Shown: one piece after another, positions 26,874-58,413 of the stretch | Layout: every line of letters starts with the position of its first letter | How positions within the stretch are numbered: the stretch's first letter is position 1 | Virus record (IMG/VR): IMGVR_UViG_3300009131_000001 | Coordinates: 17,814-81,813 of that record | Length of the DNA stretch: 64,000 nt | Strand: one strand, 5' to 3' | DNA from: a virus | Lineage: Duplodnaviria; Heunggongvirae; Uroviricota; Caudoviricetes | Made by a program: the position numbers and the translations under genes | The notes under the pieces: generated by a model | Databases searched by the model: none | Seen by the model: only the letters and a program-made list of their open reading frames with translations | Told to the model about the DNA's origin: nothing

Positions 26874-27131
26874 TTAAAGAGATTTCTCATGTTTCATATC
26901 TAAAATATAACTTCTCTTATCTTGGAGAGTTATTAATATAGATTCTAATTCTTCTTTAATCAAAGGTTCTAATTCACAATTCCATAATTGTTTATTAATA
27001 TCCTGTATATATTCATTTACTTTAAATAGATTGTATCTACTTAAATCTTGTTCATCTATGTAGTATTTAGCCATTAGTGAGTCCAATAAGGTGTTATACA
27101 AGGTTCTGCTTTTAAAGGAATGATAGGACAA
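26874..27131 (-). CDS. hypothetical protein
   Basis: Co-oriented ORF overlapping the polymerase gene's upstream end. Confidence 0.35.
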   Translation of the reverse strand: MSYHSFKSRTLYNTLLDSLMAKYYIDEQDLSRYNLFKVNEYIQDINKQLWNCELEPLIKEELESILITLQDKRSYILDMKHEKSL

Positions 27132-29029
27132 AATGGTTTAGCCCCAGTTTCCATACAATCCTTAAGTATTAATGCCCATTCTTCAGATATATTTACAGGT
27201 ACTTCTAGTAAGGCCTCATCATAAATTAAATCTACAATTTTTACTTTCATAAAATTTCCAGTAGATACTATTTTCCTAAATAAAAGAATCATAGAATATT
27301 TAAGTACTTCAGCCCCAGTTCCTTGAATAGGAAAGTTTAGTGAACTTCTATACATATCCCCCTTAATAGCGTGATATTTCTTCTGTTCCTCTTTAGATAA
27401 ACTATTATATCCCTCTCTATTTATAGTTTCTTGTAATTCCTTTAATCTATTAATATCTGGATACCAATATTTTCTTCTACATATATTATTAAAAGTTATA
27501 TATCCATTTTTAAAAGATGTTTCTGATATATATTTAAAATAATTAGCAATTCCTGGAAATGCGGACATATAAGAATTATAAATTCTCTCTCCTTCATCTA
27601 TAGGAATATTTAAATTATTAGCAATAGTAAATCCATTACCTCCATAAGAGATAGCAAATCTAGCAGATTTAGCATTTTGTCTTAAATCAGGTCGTAACTT
27701 CTTTACCTCTTCTTCGAATATATTCTGTAATTCTTTAGGAAAACACATTTTTGCTACAAAACTATGCCCATCTCTTTTTCTAGTAGTATCTAAATAAAAT
27801 TCAGTTAATACTTTGTCTTGACATTTATTTGCAAAGATGATGTCTTCTTGACCCGAGTAGTCGCAGTCTATCAATATGTTACCTCGCTCTGGTACAAAAC
27901 ATTTCCTAGTATCTTCATCTCTTGGAATATTGAGCATATTAATATATTCTGTATGATTTGCTTTATCCTTACCTCCAGAATACATCCTACCAGTATTTAG
28001 TAATTGTCCAAAATTAGTATGAATTCTACCTGTTACTGGATTTATATGCTTATAGAAGTTTTCTCCATAAGTACTTAATTCCTTTTGAAGTTCTTTATAT
28101 TTGATATATATATTTATTATAGGATATTCATTTGCAAGTTTTCTTATATGTTTTGCCGAAACAGATTCCTTTTCCTCCCCCCTTTCAACAATACTTGTAT
28201 CTATTCCTAAAATATTAAATAAATCAATAACTTGTTTGGAAGAATTCCAATTAATATTTACTCGTATTTCAGTAGAAAACAAATCTAACTGTCGGTCAAT
28301 AAACTTAGTAATATTTAGTCTTAATATTTCATTATTAAGTTCTTTTTCAATTTCTAGAAGTTTTGCTTTGGATTTATTTATTCTTTGTTGCCAAAGATTT
28401 CTATCTAATTTAATTCCACAAAACTCCAAATAAGTGATTACAGGTACAAATAAATTATCTAGTTCAATGGCTTTATAAACATCCCATTCATAAGCCAATT
28501 TCAATTGTTTTCTTTTAATTTCATGCAAAAAAGCTACATCTTTTGCACCATATATTATTACTCTATCAGAAAGTCCTTCTTTATGAATATTTCCTCTAAT
28601 AGTTTTATCTAAAGTTTCACCACAATATCTTTTAACTAAGGCATCAAGAGCCTTTCCATGTAATTTATCATCATTATTATAAAGTATTTGTTCTGCTATA
28701 TAAGTATCATAAACTTTCATAGGAATGATACCTTTAATATATAACCATCTTATATCAAACTTTAGGTGTTGCCCTATAATTAATTTATTTTCTATAAGTT
28801 CTTTATAATATTTATCTATAGGAATCTCTTGAGTATTTATTACAAACTGATTAGTTTCATCTCCTAACTGAAGTGATAAAGTCTGTTTAGTATAAACATC
28901 AAATCCAGTAGTTTCAAAATCTAATCCAATTTCATCTAATTTATTTAAATACTCTAAACTATCTTCTACAGAACACCATTTAATTTTATCACTATCAAAT
29001 AATCTTTTACTTCCTACATAATAGTACAT
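27074..29029 (-). CDS. DNA polymerase, family A (Pol I/T7 gp5-like) with 3'-5' exonuclease domain
   Basis: Exo I GLDFETTG; motif A DCDYSGQEDII; motif B RQNAKSARFAISYGG; motif C IYDEALLEV. Confidence 0.85.
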   Translation of the reverse strand: MYYYVGSKRLFDSDKIKWCSVEDSLEYLNKLDEIGLDFETTGFDVYTKQTLSLQLGDETNQFVINTQEIPIDKYYKELIENKLIIGQHLKFDIRWLYIKGIIPMKVYDTYIAEQILYNNDDKLHGKALDALVKRYCGETLDKTIRGNIHKEGLSDRVIIYGAKDVAFLHEIKRKQLKLAYEWDVYKAIELDNLFVPVITYLEFCGIKLDRNLWQQRINKSKAKLLEIEKELNNEILRLNITKFIDRQLDLFSTEIRVNINWNSSKQVIDLFNILGIDTSIVERGEEKESVSAKHIRKLANEYPIINIYIKYKELQKELSTYGENFYKHINPVTGRIHTNFGQLLNTGRMYSGGKDKANHTEYINMLNIPRDEDTRKCFVPERGNILIDCDYSGQEDIIFANKCQDKVLTEFYLDTTRKRDGHSFVAKMCFPKELQNIFEEEVKKLRPDLRQNAKSARFAISYGGNGFTIANNLNIPIDEGERIYNSYMSAFPGIANYFKYISETSFKNGYITFNNICRRKYWYPDINRLKELQETINREGYNSLSKEEQKKYHAIKGDMYRSSLNFPIQGTGAEVLKYSMILLFRKIVSTGNFMKVKIVDLIYDEALLEVPVNISEEWALILKDCMETGAKPFCPIIPLKAEPCITPYWTH

Positions 29030-40667: not shown

Positions 40668-40699
40668 TTTGGAATTGTTAGATATTAGTCATATTTTTG
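40668..40699 (+). promoter_or_regulatory. Bacteroidota-type sigma-A promoter for the rightward operon: -33 TTTG, a 20-nt spacer, then -7 TAttTTTG
   Basis: TTTG at 40668-40671 and TATTTTTG at 40692-40699. The spacing matches the Bacteroides/Flavobacterium consensus TTTG-N19-21-TAnnTTTG. The ATG at 40721 has no SD. Confidence 0.5.
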
Positions 40700-40720
40700 T
40701 AAGACTAAATTAAAATAATT

Positions 40721-41200
40721 ATGCAGTTAGAGAAAATTGTAGAAACTGAACATGGGTTTGTAGACCCTGAAACTGGAGAAGTTATTTCTTCATCCTTTAC
40801 TAATACAAAGCATATCATAAAGAAGAAGACTACTTTTGATAATTTTGTGCAGGTATATATTAGAGATTTGGCAGATATTTATAGGATTACTAGTAGAACT
40901 CAGATTGCTCTTCTAATGGTACTATGTGAAGAATCTAAAATGATTTTAAGTAATTCAGATATTCTTCCGACATTTACTGCTCTTATTGATGATAAGCAAA
41001 GATGGGCAGAGAAGTTACAAATAAATGCAGGAAAGAATGTGGATAATGCCCTAGCTGAATTGGTTAAAAAAAATATTGTACTTAGAATAAGTAGAGGCAA
41101 ATATTCTTTAAACCCTAAGTATATATTCTCAGGAGCATTAAAGGATAGACCTAAAATGCTTGAACTATGTGTGAAATATGAAATATCAGAATCTGTATAA
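40721..41200 (+). CDS. putative winged-helix DNA-binding regulator (paralog of 12371..12886); first gene of the rightward block
   Basis: DPETGEVISSSFTN...; ALAELVKKNIVLRISRGKYSLNPKYIFSG wHTH-like segment. Confidence 0.5.
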   Translation: MQLEKIVETEHGFVDPETGEVISSSFTNTKHIIKKKTTFDNFVQVYIRDLADIYRITSRTQIALLMVLCEESKMILSNSDILPTFTALIDDKQRWAEKLQINAGKNVDNALAELVKKNIVLRISRGKYSLNPKYIFSGALKDRPKMLELCVKYEISESV

Positions 41201-42889: not shown

Positions 42890-43195
42890 GTGGAAAATAT
42901 GATACCTAAACAATTTAAATTATTTGGAAGTACTATAGAAGTTATATTTGACAATAAGTACTGTAATAATAAAAACTTATATGGGGAAGCATCCTATAGT
43001 GAAAATAAAATTATCTTATCAAATGTTGATGGGGTAGATGATTTATCTCCAGATAGAGTGTTGGATACATACTACCATGAAAAGGTACATTTAATACTGG
43101 ACAGTATGGGAGAAGCTGATTTAAGTAAGAATGAAAAGTTTGTAGAGATATTTTCAAAACTGTTAAGGCAGTCTGATATAACAAGTGAATATTAA
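42890..43195 (+). CDS. small protein with an HExxH motif (possible mini metallopeptidase / ImmA-IrrE-like)
   Basis: YHEKVHLILDS contains HEKVH. Confidence 0.35.
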   Translation: MENMIPKQFKLFGSTIEVIFDNKYCNNKNLYGEASYSENKIILSNVDGVDDLSPDRVLDTYYHEKVHLILDSMGEADLSKNEKFVEIFSKLLRQSDITSEY

Positions 43196-43606: not shown

Positions 43607-43897
43607 ATGAATTTTGGACAAGCAATTGAAGCCTTAAAAGAAGGTAAATTAGTAGCAAGAGAAGGTTGGAATGGTAAGGGGTTATTTGTAATGAAACAAA
43701 TTCCTGCCGAAATTGGATTAGAGATTATCCCTAAAATGCAGTCTGTACAAGAAAGTGCTAAACAAATTTTAGTATCTAGAGGTACAACTCTAAAATATGA
43801 GAATCAAATGCTTATTATAAAACCAAATGGTACGGCAGATTCATGGGTTCCAAGCTCTTCTGATGTATTTGCAGAAGATTGGATTGTTGTAGAATAA
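43607..43897 (+). CDS. DUF2829-family protein (Tad2-like candidate anti-Thoeris sponge)
   Basis: N-terminus MNFGQAIEALKEGKLVAREGWNGKGLFVM matches the DUF2829 signature (M.FG.A.EALK.GKKV.R.GWNGKG) recalled from memory. The protein is ~96 aa, the typical family size. Confidence 0.5.
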   Translation: MNFGQAIEALKEGKLVAREGWNGKGLFVMKQIPAEIGLEIIPKMQSVQESAKQILVSRGTTLKYENQMLIIKPNGTADSWVPSSSDVFAEDWIVVE

Positions 43898-43919
43898 TAA
43901 TTAAATTAACTTAATTTAA

Positions 43920-43956
43920 ATCCTCACTAATAAAAATAGTGGGGATTTTATTTTTT
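43920..43956 (+). terminator. rho-independent terminator
   Basis: atcctcacta/tagtggggat 10-bp stem (one G-U) with a 7-nt loop, followed by TTTTATTTTTT. Confidence 0.6.
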
Positions 43957-44004
43957 ATATATAAATGTTTTATATATTTGTATTATAATTAAAATTAATA
44001 ATTA

Positions 44005-45000
44005 ATGGGTAGAGTAAGAAAAATAGGAGTCTATAAAATTACTTGTAATATTACTGGAATGTCTTATATAGGACAGAGTAATGATGTTTATAGAAGATTG
44101 AGATTTTATAAATCTCTGAGATGTAGGCAACAACCAAGAATTTACAGATCTCTATCTAAGTATGGCATAGATAATCACATATTTACAATCATTTGGGAAT
44201 CTACCTATAGTAGTAAACACATAATATTACAAAAGGACACTCTTAATATTTTGGAAAAATTTTACATATTTAAATATAATACCCTATCTCCCAATGGGTT
44301 AAATTTGTATTCTGGAGGAGATTCTTATACAGCATCTGAAGAAACTAGACTTAAATTAAGTAAATCTAAAAGTGGTATAAATCATCCAATGTATGGAAAG
44401 ATTGGAAAATTAAATCCAGCATCAAAGGAGGTTGTGCAATTAAGTAAAGATGGAGAGTTTATAAAAGATTGGGAATCTGCAACTGTTGCAGAAAAGACTT
44501 TAAATATAGCTAGAGATTTAGTATCAGCATGTTGTAGAGAAGATAGATATAGTACTAATGGGTATATATGGATGTGGAAAGCAGATTTTGATACTTACGG
44601 GCCAAAAATATACAAATTACCAAAAAGAAAAGATAGTCTATCAAAGAAGACTTATCAATATGATTTACAAGGTAAATATTTAAGAGAGTGGAATTCTACT
44701 ATGGATATAGAAAGAGAACTTAATATTGCAAATACATCTATAAGTAATGTATGCACAAATCAAAAAGGACAGGCTGGAGGATTTCAATGGAGATACTTTA
44801 TAAATGAAAATGGTATAAATGAATATATTACTAAGGGATTTCATGTAGTAGTTACAGATATAGATACAGGACTAATTCAAGAGTTTGAAAGTCTAGCTAA
44901 AATAAGTAAGACCTTTAAAATAAAGTGGTATATAATTAAAGAATGTTGCGAAGGTATTAGGAAATATTATAAAAATTATAAATTTAGTTATAAATATTAA
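44005..45000 (+). CDS. GIY-YIG homing endonuclease with NUMOD-type DNA-binding repeats
   Basis: GVYKITCNITGMSYIGQS is a GIY-YIG core. NUMOD3-like TRLKLSKSKSGINHPMYGK. Repeated IENR1/NUMOD1-like segments (KEVVQLSKDGEFIKDWESATVAEKTLNIA; LREWNSTMDIERELNIANTSISNVC). Confidence 0.7.
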   Translation: MGRVRKIGVYKITCNITGMSYIGQSNDVYRRLRFYKSLRCRQQPRIYRSLSKYGIDNHIFTIIWESTYSSKHIILQKDTLNILEKFYIFKYNTLSPNGLNLYSGGDSYTASEETRLKLSKSKSGINHPMYGKIGKLNPASKEVVQLSKDGEFIKDWESATVAEKTLNIARDLVSACCREDRYSTNGYIWMWKADFDTYGPKIYKLPKRKDSLSKKTYQYDLQGKYLREWNSTMDIERELNIANTSISNVCTNQKGQAGGFQWRYFINENGINEYITKGFHVVVTDIDTGLIQEFESLAKISKTFKIKWYIIKECCEGIRKYYKNYKFSYKY

Positions 45001-45015
45001 ATGTAGATTTTAGTT

Positions 45016-45534
45016 ATGAATAATAGGATACCAAAAGATTTTTTTATTACTAAAGGCTCTGGATTATCTGATATAACCATGCATGCTGGAGCATTTCATT
45101 TTGCATTATGGGATGCTGGAATTGATGGTTATAATTTTGTAAAATATTCATCAGTTTTACATAAAAAAGCAGAATGTGTAAATATTGAAAGTATTAAAAG
45201 TATGCCAGAACACGGTAGTGAGATGATGTGTATTCAAGCTATTGCCGAAGGAAAGGGTGGAGAAACTATTTCAGCAGGTATTATTTATGGATATCTTTAT
45301 GATCTAGAGGGCAATTGTTATGGAGGGATAGTTTGTGAAGAGTCTAATACGTATGGTGAGTCACAATTAACTTACAAATTAATAAATATAATAGATGATA
45401 TGTATTGTAAAACTTATAAAACTAAAGGATTGATACTAAGAGATGTAAAAACAATTACTGAAGAATTGTCAATTCCTAATGATGTTAGATTTGGATGTTG
45501 TTTAGTTAGTCTGTGTTTTATAAATTATTTGTAG
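45016..45534 (+). CDS. pdaD: pyruvoyl-dependent arginine decarboxylase (PdaD family)
   Basis: MNNRIPKDFFITKGSG...FHFALWDAGIDGYNFVKYSSVL parallels the PdaD N-terminus (...PK.FF.T.G.G...FE.AL..AGI...NLV.VSSI.P) including the Ser-Ser self-cleavage site. GGETISAGIIYGY matches GETISAAISVA. Confidence 0.65.
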   Translation: MNNRIPKDFFITKGSGLSDITMHAGAFHFALWDAGIDGYNFVKYSSVLHKKAECVNIESIKSMPEHGSEMMCIQAIAEGKGGETISAGIIYGYLYDLEGNCYGGIVCEESNTYGESQLTYKLINIIDDMYCKTYKTKGLILRDVKTITEELSIPNDVRFGCCLVSLCFINYL

Positions 45535-45535
45535 T

Positions 45536-45901
45536 ATGGAAATAAAAACTAATGTTAAAGGAGTAGATAAGTATATTACTATAGTCGGAATGCTTAGTAG
45601 CAAGTTACTTGGCAATGAACCATTTTGCGATTTACAACCTAAATGTCAGCTAGTATATGCATACTTACTATACTATAGAAATGATGTGTATGGGCATTTA
45701 GAGGAAAATTTGGCTAATAAGTTAACCTTTGATGGTGATACTAGAAGACTTATTGCAGAGGCACTTAAGGTAGAGAGAGTAGGTGTTTCTAACTATACTA
45801 AGATTCTTAAGGAAAGAGGTATTCTTAATGAGGATAAGAAATCTTTCAATAAGAAGTATCACATACCCAATCTTAAAGAATTTATTATTAGATTTGAGTA
45901 A
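45536..45901 (+). CDS. hypothetical protein (possible HTH)
   Basis: TRRLIAEALKVERVGVSNYTKILKERGIL is helix-turn-helix-like. Confidence 0.45.
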   Translation: MEIKTNVKGVDKYITIVGMLSSKLLGNEPFCDLQPKCQLVYAYLLYYRNDVYGHLEENLANKLTFDGDTRRLIAEALKVERVGVSNYTKILKERGILNEDKKSFNKKYHIPNLKEFIIRFE

Positions 45902-46095
45902 TGTTTATTATAAGATTTCATTTTAGAAATGTAGACGAATCTATAGATTTTATAGAACAATCCAAATCTATGTTAGAAGGATTTGACTATAAGATTAATA
46001 TAGAGGATAACGGTAAAATAGTTAAAGTTGAAATATTAAAACTAAAAGATAAAGTAATATGGGAAGTAAAAGGAAAGTGTTTTTATATGAACTAG
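45901..46095 (+). CDS. hypothetical protein
   Basis: 64-aa ORF with ATGA-type overlap. Confidence 0.35.
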   Translation: MFIIRFHFRNVDESIDFIEQSKSMLEGFDYKINIEDNGKIVKVEILKLKDKVIWEVKGKCFYMN

Positions 46096-47312
46096 CAACT
46101 GGTAAGACTATAGAATTTAATAGTCAGACTTCTGCTGGAGAGTTTTTACATGTTAGTGAAGCAACAATACGTAAGTATAATAATACTCTTAAAGAGATTG
46201 ATGGGTATAGAATATATAGTGGAGATAAAGTAGCACTTGCTGGAGAATCCTTATTAAATAGTATTAATGACCATAAAGAAACAAATGAAAACATTAATAC
46301 TAATGAGTTGGATTCAAGGATAAGTGAATTAGGTTATTCTAAATCTGATATACAGTCTGTTAAAACTTGGCAAACCCAGAAAGGTGAGACTAGATTTAGT
46401 ATTGTAACTAAACCAGATCAAGTTAATTCTGAAGAATTCCTGGAGAATCTTAAGAATAAGTTATCTGAATCCGTCAAACCATTTGAGATTCAACTTACAC
46501 CTGCTAAAGTTAGTGGGGTAGATTTAATAGTTTATACTTCAGATAAGCATGTTGGGGCTTGTAGTAAAGATTCTCAATATAATAATGAGTATAATGAGAT
46601 GGAATTTACTCGTAGAATGCAACAAATCTATCAAGAAATTGCATATGTAAAATTTGAATTTGGGCATATTAATAGTCTAATATTTATTGATTTAGGGGAT
46701 AATCTTGATGGGTATAATGCTCAAACTACTAGAGGTAATCATCCACTACCCCAGAATATGACTGATGAGGAATCATTTGATACTTATGTAAATGTACATA
46801 AGATATTCTTTGATAGTTTGGTAGAAAATAGTATGGCTAGTGAGTATAAGGCATACTTTGTAAATGATAGTAATCACTCTGGAAGTTTCGGATATACTGC
46901 AAATAGGGCATTGGAGATTTATCTTAATGTTAAGTTTCCATTCATAGAAACTATTCAGATGAATAAGTTTATGGAACATTTTATTCTAGGAGATGATTGC
47001 TATATTCTATGTCATGGTAAAGACAAGATTGATAGAAAGAATGGATTACCATTACATCTTAACGATGGTACTTATAAGTTAATATCTGACTACATTGACT
47101 ATAATAAGTTACATAATTATAACGTACATTTTGTAAAGGGGGATTTACACCAGAGTGCTTTTGAAAAGAATAGTAAGTTTACTTATAGGAATATACCTAG
47201 TGTATATGGTGCTAGTAAGTGGATTATGAATAACTTTGGATTGAATAAGCCTGGATTCTCAATGGATGTTTATCATATGGGGAATATTTATAGAAGAGAT
47301 ATTGAACTTTAA
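46059..47312 (+). CDS. calcineurin-like metallophosphoesterase with an N-terminal NUMOD1/IENR1-like DNA-binding module
   Basis: MPP motifs in order: DKHVG (D.H), GDNLDG (GDxxD), NDSNHSG (GNH-like), CHGKD (GH), GDLHQS. The N-terminal YELATGKTIEFNSQTSAGEFLHVSEATIRKY resembles homing-endonuclease DNA-binding repeats. Confidence 0.65.
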   Translation: MGSKRKVFLYELATGKTIEFNSQTSAGEFLHVSEATIRKYNNTLKEIDGYRIYSGDKVALAGESLLNSINDHKETNENINTNELDSRISELGYSKSDIQSVKTWQTQKGETRFSIVTKPDQVNSEEFLENLKNKLSESVKPFEIQLTPAKVSGVDLIVYTSDKHVGACSKDSQYNNEYNEMEFTRRMQQIYQEIAYVKFEFGHINSLIFIDLGDNLDGYNAQTTRGNHPLPQNMTDEESFDTYVNVHKIFFDSLVENSMASEYKAYFVNDSNHSGSFGYTANRALEIYLNVKFPFIETIQMNKFMEHFILGDDCYILCHGKDKIDRKNGLPLHLNDGTYKLISDYIDYNKLHNYNVHFVKGDLHQSAFEKNSKFTYRNIPSVYGASKWIMNNFGLNKPGFSMDVYHMGNIYRRDIEL

Positions 47313-47322
47313 ATTATAAATT

Positions 47323-47730
47323 ATGGAAAAATATTATTCGCCAAGTTCAGAAGAATTAAGAGTAGGTTTTGAATGTGAGATTAAATTACATACTGGAGAA
47401 TGGAAACCTATAAGATTAACTGAAGAATCCATGAAAACTACCTACTCTTCAGTAGATATTATAAGAGTTAAATATTTAGATAGGGATGATATAGAGAGTT
47501 TTGGGTTTGAATTTTGTGGTGCTGGATTTGATAATTATATGAATCACTTTAGTGATGGGTTCTTTAATATATGTTTTAGAGATATTGACGGGGATAATAA
47601 GGGAATTTCAATTAATCATGAAAGGAATAGTGGGGAGTATGTAAAAGATTTTTCTGGGTTTATAAAAAATAAATCTGAGCTGGAAATACTCCTAAAACAA
47701 CTAGGAATTAGAAACAATGAAGAATATTAA
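47323..47730 (+). CDS. hypothetical protein (paralog of 48136..48555)
   Basis: Shared YY(S/T)PS.EE.R.GFE.E...; VKYLD..DIESFGFE(F/Y); IKNKSEL...LK..G(I/V). Confidence 0.5.
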   Translation: MEKYYSPSSEELRVGFECEIKLHTGEWKPIRLTEESMKTTYSSVDIIRVKYLDRDDIESFGFEFCGAGFDNYMNHFSDGFFNICFRDIDGDNKGISINHERNSGEYVKDFSGFIKNKSELEILLKQLGIRNNEEY

Positions 47731-47890
47731 ACTATGTGTAAAATGTGGTTGTAGTGCTAGTAAGGTAGTAGAGGAATTTAATATAAAGATTCCTCTATGT
47801 ACCAAGCACTATAGAGAATATATTGAGGAAGAAGATGGATTTGTTGATAATGTGGAAGTAGTGGAGGAGGAAGAATATGACATTGATTAA
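47717..47890 (+). CDS. small zinc-ribbon protein (57 aa)
   Basis: Hand translation gives MKNIKLCVKCGCSASKVVEEFNIKIPLCTKHYREYIEEEDGFVDNVEVVEEEEYDID. It is below the track cutoff. Confidence 0.35.
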   Translation: MKNIKLCVKCGCSASKVVEEFNIKIPLCTKHYREYIEEEDGFVDNVEVVEEEEYDID

Positions 47891-48146
47891 ACCTAATTAC
47901 TTCTTAGATGGAGTAATGAGAGAAGTTGCTACTAAATATGATATTCCATTTGTTAAAGTACAAGAATGTATGGCTGCTCAATATGAGTTTGTTAGAAGAA
48001 GCGTTGAGAGTTATAATTCTAAAACTCAAACTGGAGCAAGGGTAATATATTTACCTAACTTTGGAAAGTTTATTATATCGGATAAGGTAATTAGTAATTT
48101 ACAGGAGAAGTATAAAGATTATAAGGAGAAGGAAGATGGAGAATAA
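47877..48146 (+). CDS. hypothetical protein
   Basis: 89-aa ORF. Confidence 0.4.
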   Translation: MTLIKPNYFLDGVMREVATKYDIPFVKVQECMAAQYEFVRRSVESYNSKTQTGARVIYLPNFGKFIISDKVISNLQEKYKDYKEKEDGE

Positions 48147-48555
48147 ATATTACACACCTAGTATTGAGGAATTTAGAATTGGGTTTGAGTATGAAGTGTA
48201 TATTCCAGAAAAAGAATTGTGGAGTAGTGAAACTTTTTATTTAAACCAATCTCATATTGATATTATAAAATATGTAGATATACAAACAGAAAATACTTTA
48301 AGACGAGTAAGAGTAAAATATCTAGATAGTTCTGATATAGAAAGTTTTGGGTTTGAATATAGTCATACTCCAAGAAAAAATGTGCTATTATTTAAAAGTA
48401 ATGAATATAATTTGTGGTTTGAAATGGATTTTAATTTTGTTAGAATAAGAAATACTAAAGAGATACTTCCGGGGAATATTCAATTGTTTTTTGGGAAGAT
48501 TAAAAATAAATCAGAACTACAACAAGTTCTTAAAATGATAGGAGTTATAGAATAA
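48136..48555 (+). CDS. hypothetical protein (paralog of 47323..47730)
   Basis: See 47323..47730. Confidence 0.5.
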   Translation: MENKYYTPSIEEFRIGFEYEVYIPEKELWSSETFYLNQSHIDIIKYVDIQTENTLRRVRVKYLDSSDIESFGFEYSHTPRKNVLLFKSNEYNLWFEMDFNFVRIRNTKEILPGNIQLFFGKIKNKSELQQVLKMIGVIE

Positions 48556-49122: not shown

Positions 49123-52100
49123 ATGGATTATACCAAACTAAATAAGTATCAAACATTAATAACTCCAGAACTAGAAAAGTCTTTACCTAAAGAAGTTTAT
49201 GCAGAACTTATCAATACTATTGATACTATTCCTTTTGTTAATTGGTTAGTACAACCTGAAGAAGTTAGGGGATTTGCTAAAGATAGGGTTAGGCATAAAG
49301 ATTTAGATGATTCTGATGAAAGAAAGCAATATGATGATAATAGGATAGTTGTAGATGTAACTAAACCTCATATACTTGAGGATATGGATTTCTTTAGGGA
49401 AAGGGCTATATTCTTTGATAAGTATGGATGTTATACAGATTTAACTCCTAATCCTAATCCTAATAGTGATTACGCTTTATTTTGGAAGGAAGAAATTAGA
49501 AGGTGGAAGGATGGATTAATTAAACCTAGTGATGGAGAATGGATTCCAGGAGGATTGTACTTTTATTGGAATTATTGTCCAATATGGCAAACCCAAACTG
49601 ACAGTATAACTATAAAAGGTAGAACTAAATCTAGGGCTAAACGTGTTAAAAAATTCCCTAAACCTTGGTTAGGAGATTATTTATTTTATCATTATATAGA
49701 ACAGGCTCAAGAATATGCACTACATGGTAAACTTCTAAAATGTCGTGGCGTTGGATTTAGCTTTAAAATGGGGAGTTTATCTCCTAGAAATATGTATGTG
49801 TATCAAGGTGAAGGAAATCCTAATTTCCATTTGGCTAGTGATAAAGGATTTTTACAGGGTGATAAGGGAGTATATAGTAAAGTAATCACTGTATTAGACT
49901 GGATTGCAGATACTACCCCACTCCCAAAATTAAGACTTGTGAATAGTGCTAGAAGTATGGAAATTAAACTGGGCTATCAAGATGAATATGGGGTAAATAG
50001 AGGCCCTCAGTCTAGTGTATTTGGTATATCTCTTAAGGATAATCCGGATAAGGCTCGGGGTATTCGCGGGCCTTTAGTCCATTATGAGGAAGATGGGCTA
50101 TTTCCTAATCTAGAAGATGCATGGAATATTAATCTTAAATCTGTAGAGGATGGTGACGAATCATTTGGTTTTCAATTAGCTGGCGGGTGTTTAACTGAAA
50201 ATAATTATGTATGGACTCATAATGGAAGTCTAAAAAGAATTAAAGATCTTAAAGTATCTGATGGTATAATAGGATTTAATAATGATAATCAAACTTTTAC
50301 TAAAGAACCTATTACTTATTTACAACCTACTATTAATAAACCTTGTTTGAGAATAGAAACTAATACTGGAAGATTTATTGAATGCAGTACAGATCATCCT
50401 ATACTGTACAGTCATTCTTTACTCTTTAAAAGAGAAGAACTACCTTCAGTAAATGGTAAAAGAAAAAGAAAGACATTTAAAGTAGTATCATTTAATCCTG
50501 CAAATAATTTAGTAATAGGAGACCAAGTAGCAACATTAGATCAGTTTCCCATATTTTCAGACATAGATATGTGGAATCCCAGACTAGTTGGATGGTTAGT
50601 AGGTGATGGTAGTTATGGTATAGATAAGACTCCAGTATTATCTAATTGTGAAGATGAGATAAATAGTTGGTTACATAATAATTTTAAAGATGATGTAACT
50701 ACAGAAAAATCATATATAACTAAGGATGGTAAAACTTATGAAGAAAATAGAATAAAAGGTATCACTAAAGAATTACGTAAGTTAGGGATATATGGACAAA
50801 CCAAATCAAATAAAAGACTTCCAATAGACATACATAATTACTCATTGAACACAGTCACGGAGTTTATAGGGGGATTTTATGATACTGATGGATATATTTC
50901 AAATACAGGTAGAGTTTCTTTATCCTCAGGACATAAAGAAATCTTGTTAGAAATGCAATTGTTATTACAAAAATTAGGTATTCATGGAAATATTATGTAT
51001 GTTAAACCAAATTTTAAAAACCCAAAAAGTAAAAATGGACATTATAATCTAGAAGTAGCAGATAGAGATAGTTTATTAAATTTTCAAAAGCACATAAAAC
51101 TATCTCCTAAAGTAAAAGCAGAAAGACTTGCTAATATTCATAATTTATATAAAAGTAAATCTCAACGTGCAAAACATCTTTCTGGAGTAAGATTTGAAAG
51201 AGTAGTTAAGATTGAGAATATAGGTATTCAACCTGTTTATAATTTAACTGCTGGAGAAACACATACTTATGTAGGAAATGGAATTATTACTCACAATACA
51301 GGAGGTACAGAAGGGGCTAGTTTTGAGGGTTCTGAGAAACTATTTTATCATCCAGATGCCTATAATATATACGGAATAAGTAACGTATATGATAGAAATG
51401 TAAATTCTGATTTAAAGTGTGGTTTCTTCTGGGGAGCATACTTAAATAGAAATAAGTGCTATGATTTAGATACAGGAGAACCTGATGTAATAAAGGCATT
51501 GTGTCAAATTTTACAAAATAGGTATAAAGTAAAAAATAATTCTACAGACCCCAAAGCAATTACTCAAAAAAAGGCCGAAGAACCTATTACTCCACAAGAG
51601 GCTATCATGCGTAGGGAGGGGAATATATTTCCTGCTGAAGATATTAAGAACTATCTTGCTGAAATAATGCCTAACTTCCAAAACTTTGTTAGTAGTCACT
51701 ATGTAGGCAAACTAGTTATTAATACTTCTGGAGATGTAGAGTGGAAACTAAATGAAGGTAACTTATACCCTATTAGGGATTTTCCATTTTTAGATGGTAA
51801 TAAAGAAGGTGCTGTAGAAATATATGAAATGCCTAAAAGATTTGGTAATGGGGAAATTCCTGTTGGTAGGTATATTTGTGGTATAGACCCCTATGACGAT
51901 GAAACTGGTACTTCATTAGGCAGTATATTTGTATTTGATAGGTGGAGTAGATGTATAGTTGCAGAGTATACTGGTAGACCTAGATTTGCAGATGAATTCT
52001 ATGAGATTTGCTATAGATTAGCCAAGTATTACAATGCAATGATAATGTATGAGAATAATAAGAAAGGATTATTTGTATATTTTAGAAATAAGAATATACT

Positions 52101-52512
52101 TCATATGCTGGCAGATGTTCCTAAAATACTTACTGATAAGCAGTCTTTAAAACCTGATACATTATATGGGAATAAATCCAAAGGGTTCAATGCCACTGCT
52201 GAAGTAAATACATTCTTAAGAACTGCTCAAGTTAAATGGATGTGTGAACCTTTAATGGATGATGAAGGAAACCCTAATGGATTGACTAGACTACATAAGA
52301 TTAGAAGTGTTGCATATCTTAAGGAGTGTGCTAGTTGGAATAGTGATGGTAACTTTGATAGGGTTAGTGCTATGGGAGCAGTAATGCTGTATGATTTAGA
52401 ATTAGGTAATGTAGAGATTAAAAGAACTACTGAACAAATTAAAACTAGAGCACATGATAAATATTTTGATAAGTTCTATGGAAACAAATCTAAAATGTTA
52501 AATACATGGTAA
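49123..52512 (+). CDS. terminase large subunit interrupted by an intein
   Basis: The C-terminal RNase H-like nuclease domain (YICGIDPYDDETGTSLGSIFVFDR...IVAEYTGR...EFYEICYRLAKYYNAMIMYENNKKG) is typical of TerL. A 370-aa intein is inserted after ...FQLAGG. Confidence 0.65.
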   Translation: MDYTKLNKYQTLITPELEKSLPKEVYAELINTIDTIPFVNWLVQPEEVRGFAKDRVRHKDLDDSDERKQYDDNRIVVDVTKPHILEDMDFFRERAIFFDKYGCYTDLTPNPNPNSDYALFWKEEIRRWKDGLIKPSDGEWIPGGLYFYWNYCPIWQTQTDSITIKGRTKSRAKRVKKFPKPWLGDYLFYHYIEQAQEYALHGKLLKCRGVGFSFKMGSLSPRNMYVYQGEGNPNFHLASDKGFLQGDKGVYSKVITVLDWIADTTPLPKLRLVNSARSMEIKLGYQDEYGVNRGPQSSVFGISLKDNPDKARGIRGPLVHYEEDGLFPNLEDAWNINLKSVEDGDESFGFQLAGGCLTENNYVWTHNGSLKRIKDLKVSDGIIGFNNDNQTFTKEPITYLQPTINKPCLRIETNTGRFIECSTDHPILYSHSLLFKREELPSVNGKRKRKTFKVVSFNPANNLVIGDQVATLDQFPIFSDIDMWNPRLVGWLVGDGSYGIDKTPVLSNCEDEINSWLHNNFKDDVTTEKSYITKDGKTYEENRIKGITKELRKLGIYGQTKSNKRLPIDIHNYSLNTVTEFIGGFYDTDGYISNTGRVSLSSGHKEILLEMQLLLQKLGIHGNIMYVKPNFKNPKSKNGHYNLEVADRDSLLNFQKHIKLSPKVKAERLANIHNLYKSKSQRAKHLSGVRFERVVKIENIGIQPVYNLTAGETHTYVGNGIITHNTGGTEGASFEGSEKLFYHPDAYNIYGISNVYDRNVNSDLKCGFFWGAYLNRNKCYDLDTGEPDVIKALCQILQNRYKVKNNSTDPKAITQKKAEEPITPQEAIMRREGNIFPAEDIKNYLAEIMPNFQNFVSSHYVGKLVINTSGDVEWKLNEGNLYPIRDFPFLDGNKEGAVEIYEMPKRFGNGEIPVGRYICGIDPYDDETGTSLGSIFVFDRWSRCIVAEYTGRPRFADEFYEICYRLAKYYNAMIMYENNKKGLFVYFRNKNILHMLADVPKILTDKQSLKPDTLYGNKSKGFNATAEVNTFLRTAQVKWMCEPLMDDEGNPNGLTRLHKIRSVAYLKECASWNSDGNFDRVSAMGAVMLYDLELGNVEIKRTTEQIKTRAHDKYFDKFYGNKSKMLNTW
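50188..51297 (+). mobile_element. Intein with a LAGLIDADG homing endonuclease domain inside the terminase large subunit
   Basis: It starts with Cys (CLTENNY) at 50188 and ends ...GIITHN at 51297, followed by Thr (+1). Two LAGLIDADG motifs are present: LVGWLVGDGSYGID and FIGGFYDTDGYIS. The length of 1110 nt is in frame. Confidence 0.75.
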
Positions 52513-52568: not shown

Positions 52569-55106
52569 ATGATAAAGGAATCATCTGCAATGGGAGTTCA
52601 AAGTGTTAACTTTTTCCCAGCACAAATGCTTACTGATAAAGAAAGAACTGATGATTTCTATCAGCAGTGCATTGATGCTGGATTAAGTATAGTTAACTGG
52701 AACCTCAACTTATATAGTTCAATTGGTGTAAGAAACACCAGAAAGAATAAGATTATCAACTACAATCTTTTCAATGATATTGTTGATAGAGAGGAAATGA
52801 ATAGGGTTATTAATCCTTGGGGATTTGATGATGTTGCCAAACTTCCTAGATATAAGAATTACTCTTTACTAAATAGTAGTCTGATGTTGCTATTCGGTGA
52901 GGAAAGAAGAAGGGCATTTAATCCTATTGCTACATCTATTAATAGCGATGCGGTTAATGAGAGATTACGAACTATTAATAATGCTTTTACTCAAACTGTA
53001 ACACAATCACTTATAAATCCAAATGAATCTCCTGAAGAAACTGAAAGGAAGATGCAGGAGTTTGGTAAGTGGGCTAATTTTGAGTATAAGGATAGAAGGG
53101 CTAGAATGGCTCAACAGGTTATTAACTACTTATACAGGACTGACTATGCTGCGGAGACTTTTAGTAGAGGATTTGAGGATTTACTAATTGCTGGGGAGGA
53201 GATATATTTTGGAGATGTTATAGGTAATAAACCTGTACTTAGAAAGGGTAATCCTTTAAATACGTATAGTTTGAGAGCAGGTACATCCTATAAGATAGAA
53301 GATTCAGATATTATTGTTGAGGATGGGTATTTACCTTTGGGAGAAGTTCTTGATAGGTACTATGATGATTTATCACCTAAAGAAATAGATGCACTACAAC
53401 AAGGATTTAGAATATCTACAGGTAAAGGGCTTATTCAGGGGCAAGAGGCTAACCCAGTATTTGACCCAAGTCTAATATTTGGAGTAGAATTAAATGGTAA
53501 TATATTTAATCCCAATAACTCTGATGTATCATATTTTGCTGGAGGATTTGATGTTCAAGGTAATGTTAGGTGTACTAGAGTTCTTTGGAAGGGTATGAGA
53601 AAGGTAGGCTCACTAGAAACTACTGACCCTGAAACAGGTGAAACCATTAAGAAGTATGTAGATGAATCCTATAAGCCTAACAAAATGTTAGGTGAAAAGA
53701 TAGAGTGGATGTGGCTATCTGAATGGTTTGAAGGTACTAAGATTGGTAATAATGTGTATACCAGAATGAGACCTTGTCCAGTACAGTTTAGAAGTATGGA
53801 TAATCCATCTATCTGTAAGCCTCCTGTGGTAGGTATAGTTGTTAATGTTAATGCTAATAAGGGTAGAAGTTTGGTTGATATGACTAGGGAATATCAGTAC
53901 CTATATAATGCTCTTATGGCAAGAATGGAAATGACTATGGTTAAGGATAGGGGTAAAATGGCTAGACTAGATTTATCCTTAATTCCTGATGGTTGGGAAA
54001 TGGATAAGTGGATGTACTATGCTGAGGTATTAGGTTGGCAAGTAGTAGACCCATTTAATGAAGGGCAGAAAGGTGCAGCCACTGGTAAGTTAGCAGGAGC
54101 AATGAATCAGAATTCTTCTTCTATAGATTTGGAACAGGGGCAATACCTACAAAGAACTCTACTAATGGCAGATTTCATTGCTAGAAGAGTTGAGGATATA
54201 ACGGGTATTAACCCACAAAGAAAGGGGGCTGTAGATAATAGGGAAACTGTTGGAGGTGTTGAGAGGGCTGTAACTCAGAGTTCTATGAGTACTGAAAAGT
54301 GGTTTGTACTACACGATAATGTTAGAATTAGAGCATTAAAGATGTGGCTAGAACTTGCCAAGTTTGCTTGGAGAAATGAGCAGTTTAAGAGGCCATATAT
54401 TATGGATGACGGTAGTATGGGTATCTTGGATTTTGACTATGAAACATTTGTAGAATCTGAGTATGGTATAGATATTACTTCAAGTAGTGCTGATATGGAA
54501 ATGACTCAAGCACTTAAGCAACTTGCACAACCATTTCTACAAAATGGGGGTAATCTATCAATTGTTGCAGATTTGTATAGAACTACAGACCCACAAAGTC
54601 TACAGAGAAAGATTGAGGCTTATGAGCAACAGATTGCAGATAATACTAGACAGACTCAGGAGCAGCAGAATCAGATACAAATGCAGCAAATTGAACAGGC
54701 TAGTGCTCAAGCAGAAGCTACTGCACAAAGAGAGTATGATTTGGAAATGGCTAAACTTGACCTTGAAAGGTATAAGATTGATACTGAAGCATCTACTAAG
54801 ATTCAGGTAGCACAAATGGCTACTTATAATAAGAGGGAGGATATTGACTTAAATAAGAATGGTATTCCAGACCCAATGGAAATTGCTTCTAATGCTTTAA
54901 ATGCTAGAAAACAAGAGGCTGATGAATTTCAGAAGGAGTTAGATACTACATTAAAGTATAAGTTAGAACAGGAGAAAATGGATTTAGAGAGAGAGAAAAT
55001 GCAACATGATAAAGAGTTGCAGGATAAGAAGGATAAAGCAGCAATGGCTAGAGAGAAGTTGAAGGCTAGTACAGCACGTAAAAATAAAGTTTCAGGAGAG
55101 AAATAA
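52569..55106 (+). CDS. portal protein (probable)
   Basis: 845 aa, immediately after the terminase. The C-terminal Q-rich coiled segment is common in portals. No decisive motif. Confidence 0.5.
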   Translation: MIKESSAMGVQSVNFFPAQMLTDKERTDDFYQQCIDAGLSIVNWNLNLYSSIGVRNTRKNKIINYNLFNDIVDREEMNRVINPWGFDDVAKLPRYKNYSLLNSSLMLLFGEERRRAFNPIATSINSDAVNERLRTINNAFTQTVTQSLINPNESPEETERKMQEFGKWANFEYKDRRARMAQQVINYLYRTDYAAETFSRGFEDLLIAGEEIYFGDVIGNKPVLRKGNPLNTYSLRAGTSYKIEDSDIIVEDGYLPLGEVLDRYYDDLSPKEIDALQQGFRISTGKGLIQGQEANPVFDPSLIFGVELNGNIFNPNNSDVSYFAGGFDVQGNVRCTRVLWKGMRKVGSLETTDPETGETIKKYVDESYKPNKMLGEKIEWMWLSEWFEGTKIGNNVYTRMRPCPVQFRSMDNPSICKPPVVGIVVNVNANKGRSLVDMTREYQYLYNALMARMEMTMVKDRGKMARLDLSLIPDGWEMDKWMYYAEVLGWQVVDPFNEGQKGAATGKLAGAMNQNSSSIDLEQGQYLQRTLLMADFIARRVEDITGINPQRKGAVDNRETVGGVERAVTQSSMSTEKWFVLHDNVRIRALKMWLELAKFAWRNEQFKRPYIMDDGSMGILDFDYETFVESEYGIDITSSSADMEMTQALKQLAQPFLQNGGNLSIVADLYRTTDPQSLQRKIEAYEQQIADNTRQTQEQQNQIQMQQIEQASAQAEATAQREYDLEMAKLDLERYKIDTEASTKIQVAQMATYNKREDIDLNKNGIPDPMEIASNALNARKQEADEFQKELDTTLKYKLEQEKMDLEREKMQHDKELQDKKDKAAMAREKLKASTARKNKVSGEK

Positions 55107-56913: not shown

Positions 56914-58413
56914 ATGGGATTTCAAGTAAGTAAACTGCAAATTACAGAACCTAAATACTGGAGTAACTTTACCAGTATGGATCACCTGGCTGCTATGGGT
57001 AACTATCAGCCTGAATACATTAATCAAACCTTGGAATATCTGTATGATGTAAACTACGGATATAACTTTGGTAGTATGATTAATAAGCTACCTGTTCACT
57101 ATATTGATAATGGTGAAATGAACTATAGATGGGCAATGATTGGTGGAGAGGAAAGACCTATTCCACTAGTAAAAGCCTCTCTTGATGCAACTGGTACTGC
57201 CCTTAATGCAACAGACAAACCAGGTCAATATGGTGCCAGCTTCTACATGTGGTTTGCTGAACCATATTTTACTGCTACAACTACTTTACTTGGTTCTAAA
57301 CCAGAAGCATATGTAATTAGATGTAAATCTGATGCTATTCAGGTAGGTGATTTATATCGTCATGAAGTAGAATTACTTACGTCAAATCCAGCATTCTTTG
57401 TACCTGTTGCAGACCTTATTGCAGACAGCCTATGGAATGAAGGATGGGGGCAAGTAGAACAAGCCCTCTCTAAGAGGGGTAATGGTATCCATCATGGTAC
57501 TCACTTCATGTTTGAGAATACCCTTAATGTAATTCGTAAGAACTATGAAGTTCCTGGTAATGTGCTGCGTAATGGTACTCAAAATAACCCACTTGCATTT
57601 GCATTTAAAGATTTGGAAACTGGTCAAACTAGTAAGAAATGGATTGATAAGCAAGCTTGGGATTTCTATCGCCAGTTTAGAAATGATGCATATAGACTAG
57701 ACCTCTATGGTAAGTCAAATAAGCAACTTGATGGTTCTTATGGTAATAGAGGTGAATCTGGTAATGTAATTAAGTCTGGATTTGGTCTATATGAGCAAAT
57801 GAATAATAGTAATATTCTATACTACAATAAGTTTAGTATTGATGCATTACTTGACTTTGTACTTAGTGTTACTGTAGGTAAGTTCCGTGAAGACCAGCGT
57901 AAACTTGTTGTTACTTGTGGAGAATATGGAGCAGTTCAATTCCATAAGGCACTACTTGCTAAACCAGGTGCATCTAGCTTCTTCAGAAGTGATTATCCTC
58001 TTGAGAAAGCTGCTAATGGCAAGTTAGGTTGGAATGAGGGACAATTCACTACTATTAAGTGGGTTAATGGTATTGAGATTACCTTGGTAATTGATAGCCA
58101 AAAAGACAGCCCTTTCCATACTTTGAAGCATCCTGATGGAGGTAATGTTGCATCTTATATCTATGATATCTTTGACTTTGGGCAAACTAATGGTCAGGCA
58201 AATATCATGCGTGTAATGCAACGTAACTTTGAAGAAACCTTCGGTTATATTCCAGGTATGTTTGACCCATTTACTCCTGGTGGTAAGGCTGGTAATCCTA
58301 AGACTATTACCTCTTCTGTAGATGGTTACTCAGTATATGGTTGGAAGCAACGTGGTATTATGATTAAGAATCCTCTTAAGACAGGTAGGTTTATTCCTGC
58401 AATCTATAGATAG
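56914..58413 (+). CDS. major capsid protein (candidate)
   Basis: 499 aa, immediately after the scaffold, with GC-richer 'highly expressed' codon choice. A strong terminator follows it. Confidence 0.45.
   Translation: MGFQVSKLQITEPKYWSNFTSMDHLAAMGNYQPEYINQTLEYLYDVNYGYNFGSMINKLPVHYIDNGEMNYRWAMIGGEERPIPLVKASLDATGTALNATDKPGQYGASFYMWFAEPYFTATTTLLGSKPEAYVIRCKSDAIQVGDLYRHEVELLTSNPAFFVPVADLIADSLWNEGWGQVEQALSKRGNGIHHGTHFMFENTLNVIRKNYEVPGNVLRNGTQNNPLAFAFKDLETGQTSKKWIDKQAWDFYRQFRNDAYRLDLYGKSNKQLDGSYGNRGESGNVIKSGFGLYEQMNNSNILYYNKFSIDALLDFVLSVTVGKFREDQRKLVVTCGEYGAVQFHKALLAKPGASSFFRSDYPLEKAANGKLGWNEGQFTTIKWVNGIEITLVIDSQKDSPFHTLKHPDGGNVASYIYDIFDFGQTNGQANIMRVMQRNFEETFGYIPGMFDPFTPGGKAGNPKTITSSVDGYSVYGWKQRGIMIKNPLKTGRFIPAIYR

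Follow-up and report, generated by a model that had tools for sequence, protein, structure and literature searches.

Results

A Small Gene at the End of a Plus-Strand Transcription Unit

The stretch of phage DNA analyzed here (64,000 nt, hereafter the window) carries on its plus strand, at 43607..43897, an open reading frame that starts with ATG and encodes a protein of 96 aa, the N-terminus of which reads exactly MNFGQAIEALKEGKLVAREGWNGKG, as the initial annotation had stated. The call of the start codon is supported by the homologs, which open at the same M-[ND]-F-G. Homologs number more than 2000, an identical 96-aa protein is present on a 99.7 kb contig, and dN/dS relative to three diverged copies amounts to 0.18–0.26; the reading frame, termed tad2 in the following, is therefore a real gene under purifying selection.

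The gene concludes a run of nine small plus-strand ORFs that begins at 40721, just after a switch in strand and GC skew near 40 kb. Twenty bases downstream of tad2, folding predicted an intrinsic terminator on the same strand (43918..43958; stem 43918-43948), with a 12-bp stem, a 7-nt loop and a T-run, which closes the small-gene transcription unit; none of 200 shuffled sequences folded as well as this hairpin (ΔG −14.2 kcal/mol, z = −4.66). The earlier description of a run of small plus-strand genes followed by a strong terminator is thus borne out. At the upstream end, a pattern search located a candidate Bacteroidota-type promoter (TTTG-N20-TAnnTTTG; 40668..40699, plus strand) 22 nt before the first ORF. 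It may conceivably drive the unit that ends with tad2, but it is the position of the motif that speaks for it, since the Bacteroidota −7 motif is not enriched window-wide (62 occurrences versus 54 expected). A further TAnnTTTG occurs at 43973, between the tad2 terminator and a homing endonuclease gene.

The first gene of the run, within 40668-41200 (plus strand), codes for a winged-helix protein resembling RepL (PF05732, E = 1.4e-6). The gene two positions before tad2 (42890-43195, plus strand) specifies a protein of 101 aa in which an HEKVH (HExxH-like) motif occurs; it aligns with phrog_1233 (‘unknown function’, E = 4.6e-10) over the N-terminal third of the latter and could be a small metallopeptidase-like protein. 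Searches of all neighboring small ORFs against Pfam and PHROG yielded nothing interpretable, and tblastn of the window ORFs against five phage loci and 62 genome loci with Tad2 homologs revealed no co-conserved tad2 neighbors. The notion of an ‘anti-defence island’ was rejected for want of support. The initial annotation had spoken of a plausible anti-defence locus; it is the Tad2 gene itself that speaks for this label, its neighbors having neither recognizable domains nor a conserved association with Tad2. A second Tad2 or a Sequestin gene was not found in the window by tblastn, a search of low sensitivity.

Directly after the tad2 terminator follows, at 44005-45000 (plus strand), the gene for a GIY-YIG/NUMOD1/NUMOD3 homing endonuclease, and at 46059-47312 (plus strand) that for a protein with a NUMOD1 N-terminus (phrog_22398). 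Between the two lies, at 45016-45534 (plus strand), the gene for a pyruvoyl-dependent arginine decarboxylase of full length (PF01862, E = 8e-24, profile positions 1-161 of 161), which gave no PHROG match and in which the Ser-Ser motif ‘KYSSVL’ could be the self-cleavage site. For a crAss-like phage this is an unusual auxiliary metabolic gene, which may serve agmatine/polyamine synthesis. For the block of ~4.5 kb at 44005-48555 (plus strand), the decarboxylase gene included, tblastn detected no counterpart in the equivalent slot between Tad2 and TerS of L002, a related phage of 90.8 kb, a result suggestive of a mobile or accessory insertion.

Megablast of the 38–58 kb portion of the window against 50,697 phage records gave no match, and the phage was for this reason placed by protein. 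The window encodes a portal (52569-55106), a major head protein (56914-58413), a helicase and, on the minus strand, a PolA (27074-29029). Its TerL of 1129 aa (49123-52512, plus strand) is interrupted by an intein and is matched by the terminase PHROG in two separate parts. Within the intein lies a homing endonuclease of the LAGLIDADG kind (PF14528, PF14890, Hint); the TerL of L002 is uninterrupted (762 aa). Identity of the major capsid protein to those of the Crassvirales is ~29%, and the cultured relatives found with it all infect Bacteroidota (Bacteroides, Flavobacterium, Cellulophaga, Azobacteroides). As judged from its proteins, the source element is a divergent crAss-like tailed phage. 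Its host is probably a member of the Bacteroidota; the GC content of the window is 26–36%, and the nearest genome-encoded Tad2 relatives stem from Bacteroidales MAGs.

Family Assignment and Predicted Fold

The initial annotation had noted a DUF2829 signature in the protein and had proposed a Pfam search and a structural comparison with Tad2 as checks. The former gave a match to PF11195 (Tad2-like, formerly DUF2829) across the whole profile (positions 1-73 of 73; residues 1-95 of the 96-aa protein), with E = 1.4e-21 and 77.3 bits against a curated gathering cutoff of 25. Among PDB sequences, phmmer returned Tad2 proteins only, namely SptTad2 (7.5e-20), HgmTad2/AcrIIA7 (4e-15), ModTad2 (5e-15) and SPO1 Tad2 (5e-11), and these matches became stronger with a profile search. 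The AlphaFold2 monomer model (pLDDT 95.1; 45 homologs in the input) comprises helices H3-11 and H84-88 and strands E15-18, E27-30, E68-71, E77-79 and E92-95, and displays the features of the Tad2 fold, i.e., an N-terminal helix, an antiparallel β-sheet and a short C-terminal helix between the last strands. When the model was compared with the PDB using Foldseek, all 24 matches at E ≤ 1e-3 were Tad2 structures, the closest being SptTad2-cGG (8wjd) and HgmTad2 (8kbi) with TM 0.84–0.85 and rmsd 2.0–2.2 Å, followed by ModTad2 (TM 0.73) and SPO1 Tad2 (TM 0.60–0.67). Profile, sequence matches to solved Tad2 proteins, predicted fold and the gcADPR-contact residues described below all uphold the earlier family assignment, and identify the protein, at the level of sequence and model, as a genuine Tad2-family member. 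As such it is an ordinary addition to a large and well-described family, the reported size of which had grown from over 650 homologs in 2023 to 2,783 in 2025, and which was already known from gut phages and Bacteroides phages.

The closest characterized relative is SptTad2 from a Sphingobacterium thalpophilum prophage (PDB 8WJD, cGG complex; host phylum Bacteroidota), whose sequence alignment is gap-free but for one residue and whose structural match shows TM 0.85, an rmsd of 2.0 Å and 37% identity. HgmTad2, alias meAcrIIA7 (human gut metagenome/Bacteroides phage; PDB 8KBI-8KBM and 8WJC; pdAcrIIA7, 9KZR), shares the fold, the class of long insertions and the gut Bacteroidales phage setting. 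The founding member, SPO1 Tad2 (gp34.65; PDB 8SME/8SMF/8SMG), has the core fold and is likewise a small stand-alone phage protein, but is structurally further away, has a short insertion (residues 36-59) with the second pocket occluded by F44 stacking, and does not bind cyclic nucleotides. ModTad2/MoTad2 (Myroides odoratus prophage; PDB 8V3E, 9EIB), finally, is a two-pocket sponge for His-ADPR and cUMP/cCMP that also originates from a Bacteroidota element.

The ADPR-Signal Pocket

Yirmiya et al. reported that SPO1 Tad2 binds gcADPR via W25, N26, W73 and D79, plus S76 and T78. For HgmTad2, Li et al. described gcADPR contacts of W21, N22, G23, T82, W87, L88, S90, T92 and D93, and found that the W21A/N22A and S90A/T92A/D93A mutants no longer bind gcADPR. 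These contacts map onto W21, N22, G23, T76, W80, V81, S83, S85 and D86 of the 96-aa protein, and the pocket-defining residues among them (W21, N22, G23, W80, S83, S85, D86) are all present. The codons for W21-N22-G23, which belong to the β1-β2 loop of the pocket, lie at 43667..43675 (plus strand) and correspond to W21/N22/G23 of HgmTad2 and W25/N26 of SPO1 Tad2; those for W80-V81-P82-S83-S84-S85-D86, the C-terminal half of the pocket, lie at 43844..43864 (plus strand) and correspond to W87/L88/S90/T92/D93 and W73/S76/T78/D79, respectively. Four of the mutationally validated HgmTad2 residues (W21, N22, S90, D93) are thus conserved and the fifth, T92, is replaced by Ser; SptTad2, which has the same W-N-G/W/S/D signature, also carries Thr where the 96-aa protein has S85. 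The C-terminal pocket motif of ModTad2 is very similar.

Positions of this pocket are nearly invariant among 120 close and 159 diverse relatives, the latter being representatives of 50%-identity clusters; W21, for example, is retained in all 120 of the former and in 150 of the latter. Of 58 homologs with taxon labels, drawn from at least six phyla, almost all carry the signature WNG..W..S.[ST]D.

The Insertion and the Second Pocket

Codons 31-66 (43697..43804, plus strand) encode Q31 and an insertion of 35 aa (residues 32-66) between β2 and β5, a segment that forms the cyclic-dinucleotide (CDN) pocket in HgmTad2 and SptTad2. In these two relatives, cGG/cGAMP is held in a separate intra-dimer pocket made by the insertion. 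According to Li et al., CDN binding is tied to β2-β5 insertions of 35–41 aa, and all three homologs of this kind that were tested bound CDNs (the subgroup comprises HgmTad2, SptTad2 and SaTad2). The insertion under study falls within this range, being as long as that of SptTad2 (35 aa) and shorter than that of HgmTad2 (41 aa); it is longer than that of ModTad2 (25 aa), the ADPR-pocket signature of which is identical. A ModTad2-type (His-ADPR/cUMP) protein would be expected to group with ModTad2, CcaTad2 and TmoTad2 and to have an insertion of ~25 aa. The earlier reading as a Tad2 protein was correct as to family, but had overlooked this second pocket.

The residues equivalent to those of the second pocket are Q31, I36, S46 and Y64 plus D78, the codon of which (43838-43840) falls outside codons 31-66. 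Relative to HgmTad2, the phosphate-contacting S47 is kept (S46), base-stacking F70 and L36 are conservatively replaced by Y64 and I36, and R31 and N85, which form hydrogen bonds to guanine, are replaced by Q31 and D78. Among the five cGG contacts of HgmTad2 (R31, N85, S47, F70, L36), both guanine-reading residues are hence changed, and we did not assign the protein as a cGG binder on account of these two replacements. The comparison with SptTad2 is analogous: the phosphate-contact Ser and an aromatic residue at the base-stacking position are shared, but the pocket is R/L/F/N there versus Q31/I36/Y64/D78 here. ModTad2 has a Tyr equivalent to Y64, but no equivalents of Q31 and S46.

Although the insertion is overall more variable than average (mean entropy 1.98 versus 1.76), Q31 is present in 120 of 120 close and 143 of 159 diverse relatives, and S46, Y64 and Q31 rank 8th, 10th and 13th in conservation among the 96 positions (159 cluster representatives), comparable to the gcADPR residues. 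The replacements in the second pocket, Q31 and D78, are not drift. The QPISY[DN]-type pocket (the last letter standing for position 78) is invariant in the clade and occurs widely in Tad2 relatives of metagenomic origin, from the gut and elsewhere. The insertion is hypervariable from one labelled genome to the next: Bacteroidales MAGs contain the Hgm type (R-L-S-F-N, 41 aa), whereas Q-P-I-S-Y-D was found on one uncultured 70-kb contig, and Q-P-I-S-Y-T, with Thr replacing D78, in one Bacteroidales MAG. In the literature consulted, we found neither a solved structure of, nor an experiment on, a QPISY-type Tad2.

Exchange of tad2 between Phages

The equivalent position in L002, that of the final small gene ahead of a TerS-like gene, TerL and portal, is taken by a Tad2 of 76% identity. 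The two phages have no other small gene in common, and their TerL, portal and TerS-like proteins are only 30–36% identical (TerL and portal, 33–36%). An 85%-identical Tad2 copy is encoded among nucleotide-metabolism genes of an unrelated 84-kb phage. Recent transfer between unrelated phages was ruled out as an explanation of this high identity, because dS amounts to 0.77–1.07; it reflects strong constraint together with older exchange. Conservation at 76–85% across otherwise divergent phages, at such dS values, characterizes tad2 as a strongly constrained, exchangeable accessory gene.

Discussion

From family, fold, residue conservation, purifying selection and phage context we infer a tetrameric state, ligands and an anti-defence effect in vivo that would follow the example of the solved Tad2 homologs. 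In the model that we favor, and that we regard as probable, the protein is a tetrameric Tad2 sponge holding an ADPR-derived signal in one pocket and, probably, a second nucleotide in the pocket formed by the insertion. Four copies would assemble into the tetramer, a dimer of V-shaped dimers with its pockets where protomers meet, as in SPO1 Tad2, HgmTad2, ModTad2 and pdAcrIIA7. The inter-dimer pocket (W21/N22/G23 together with W80, S83, S85 and D86) would, by analogy, sequester, but not degrade, an ADP-ribose-derived alarm molecule produced by TIR-domain (Thoeris) proteins of the host, the likeliest ligand being 1''-3' gcADPR (3'cADPR) of type I Thoeris. Deprived of its signal, the effector of Thoeris would stay off, enabling the phage to complete infection. 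The 35-residue insertion would add a second, independent pocket within each dimer, which in SptTad2 and HgmTad2 accommodates CBASS cyclic dinucleotides and which here, with Q31 in place of R31 and D78 in place of N85, would probably sequester another nucleotide signal. Anti-Thoeris activity is probable on these analogies, but the exact signal is not readable from the sequence, since Tad2 members vary in their targets, which include Thoeris I, II and IV signals, CBASS dinucleotides and Pycsar cUMP/cCMP. The term ‘anti-Thoeris sponge’ in the initial annotation is hence likely to be right as far as the Tad2 sponge is concerned, but fixes a ligand where the members of the family differ. In a survey of sponges, moreover, 19 of 84 tested (about a quarter) inhibited none of seven systems.

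A first issue is whether the second pocket holds a ligand at all. The 35-aa insertion could be merely structural and contribute to dimer packing, leaving a sponge with a single pocket. The guanine-reading residues of HgmTad2 are changed (R31Q, N85D), and the conserved residues of the insertion could serve the dimer interface, which is the site of the second pocket. However, the polar residues Q31, S46 and Y64 belong to the best-conserved part of the protein, each of the three tested homologs with insertions of 35–41 aa bound CDNs, and even ModTad2 with its shorter insertion binds cUMP at the same interface. We consider a purely structural insertion unlikely. The sequence pattern would instead fit a second pocket that is functional, albeit with a ligand that is not predictable, and the protein is likely a dual-ligand sponge that sequesters a second nucleotide signal in its insertion pocket.

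The nature of this second ligand invites speculation. The QPISY[DN] pocket may bind a nucleotide immune signal unlike the cGG/cGAMP bound by HgmTad2 and SptTad2 or the cUMP/cCMP bound by ModTad2, possibly a Bacteroidota signal that has not been chemically identified so far; we put this forward as a long shot, well behind the two-pocket model as such. Fusion proteins among the relatives bear on this point. A relative termed P0134 consists of a QPISYD-type Tad2 fused to PF21825, and another one of 289 aa (P0143) combines a QPISY-type Tad2, in which Tyr replaces D78, with a ModTad2-like Tad2 and PF21825. PF21825 (Pfam name ‘crAss001_48 related protein’) is the Sequestin of Sorek and colleagues, a 3'cADPR sponge, and the fusion of distinct sponge domains has been described as a route to block several signals with one protein and reported as a hallmark of sponge modules. 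The fusions support a sponge role for the QPISY-type domain, and they hint at a specificity that does not duplicate those of its fusion partners.

A second issue concerns the ADPR-signal pocket. The protein might be tuned to His-ADPR (type II) or N7-cADPR (type IV) and not block type I Thoeris, which we deem plausible but clearly less likely than binding of gcADPR. ModTad2 is the case in point: it comes from a Bacteroidota (Myroides) prophage, carries the same pocket signature as the 96-aa protein (WNG, W, S, S, D) and a resembling C-terminal motif (TWTPSVSDILAEDW versus SWVPSSSDVFAEDW), but its ligand is His-ADPR and it leaves type I Thoeris uninhibited, and Tad2 specificity is for this reason not predictable from family membership. 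Some Tad2 homologs also inhibit type IV, or all three types. Against this, most tested Tad2 homologs inhibit type I, the nearest solved relatives SptTad2 and HgmTad2 bind gcADPR or inhibit Thoeris, and ModTad2 is structurally more distant, with its lower TM score and 25-aa insertion. We thus retain gcADPR as the likeliest ligand of the first pocket.

Since HgmTad2 is also known as AcrIIA7, an anti-CRISPR function deserves mention, by which a basic groove of the tetramer binds tracrRNA and thereby prevents assembly of Cas9 with its guide RNA. The mechanism has been published on the basis of in vitro data, and the 96-aa protein, besides belonging to the same family, begins at the core domain and thus lacks the inhibitory N-terminal head domain, as does the active meAcrIIA7. 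According to the 2026 paper, however, pdAcrIIA7 binds RNA in vitro through K58, K66, K71, K93 and R101, and just two of the five equivalent groove residues are kept here (K11, K24). K19 is replaced by E19, a charge reversal at the very position where the K66W mutation abolished RNA binding of pdAcrIIA7, K46 by Q45, an invariant Gln in the clade, and R54 by Q53, which is mostly Asp in relatives; the pI is 5.15 versus 7.9 for HgmTad2. The published support was moreover obtained in vitro only, with micromolar protein and pre-incubation, and in the study of Li et al. Acr activity was absent both in vitro and in vivo. An AcrIIA7-type function of the 96-aa protein is in our view very improbable. More improbable still is a role of the DUF2829 fold outside anti-defence, e.g., a regulatory one, for which one might cite the ‘unknown function’ label of the main PHROG matches and a weak match of residues 64-96 only to the ‘transcriptional regulator’ phrog_643 (E = 3e-4), since the ligand contacts are all preserved in a gene under purifying selection, the relatives with solved structures are without exception sponges for nucleotide signals, and the domain occurs fused to other sponge domains.

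The analysis places a probable signal-sequestering counter-defence gene of the Tad2 family in a divergent crAss-like phage, that is, in a lineage abundant in the gut and hard to culture. The presence of Tad2 would imply that its presumed Bacteroidota hosts deploy TIR/Thoeris-type signaling immunity and probably also cyclic-nucleotide signaling; a cGG-producing CBASS has been described by Li et al. in Bacteroides. Apart from the second pocket, tad2 is an expected member of a family known from gut and Bacteroides phages, and the conserved pocket of the QPISY type, distinct from those characterized, is the sole non-trivial point. Its practical value lies in a distinct set of residues at the place where CBASS or Pycsar nucleotides are bound in relatives. 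From a QPISY-type member, once purified, one could learn which signal is used by Bacteroidales immune systems and, if the pocket binds a new one, the protein could serve as bait for its capture and identification, as has been done with Tad1 and ModTad2.

The 96-aa protein represents the stand-alone short form of the PF11195 sponge. Most relatives among the representatives of 50%-identity clusters exceed 115 aa. In many close relatives, P0058 and P0076 among them, a Tad2 domain of 76–82% identity is preceded by ~66 additional N-terminal residues (…GYKVLYEDGYESWSPKDVFEKAY…) that are absent here. The extension gave no Pfam match at E ≤ 1e-3, and the suspicion that it might be Acb4 (PF13876) was dropped on that ground. 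Its analog may be the ‘head domain’ that inhibits pdAcrIIA7; alternatively, the extension may constitute a further sponge module.
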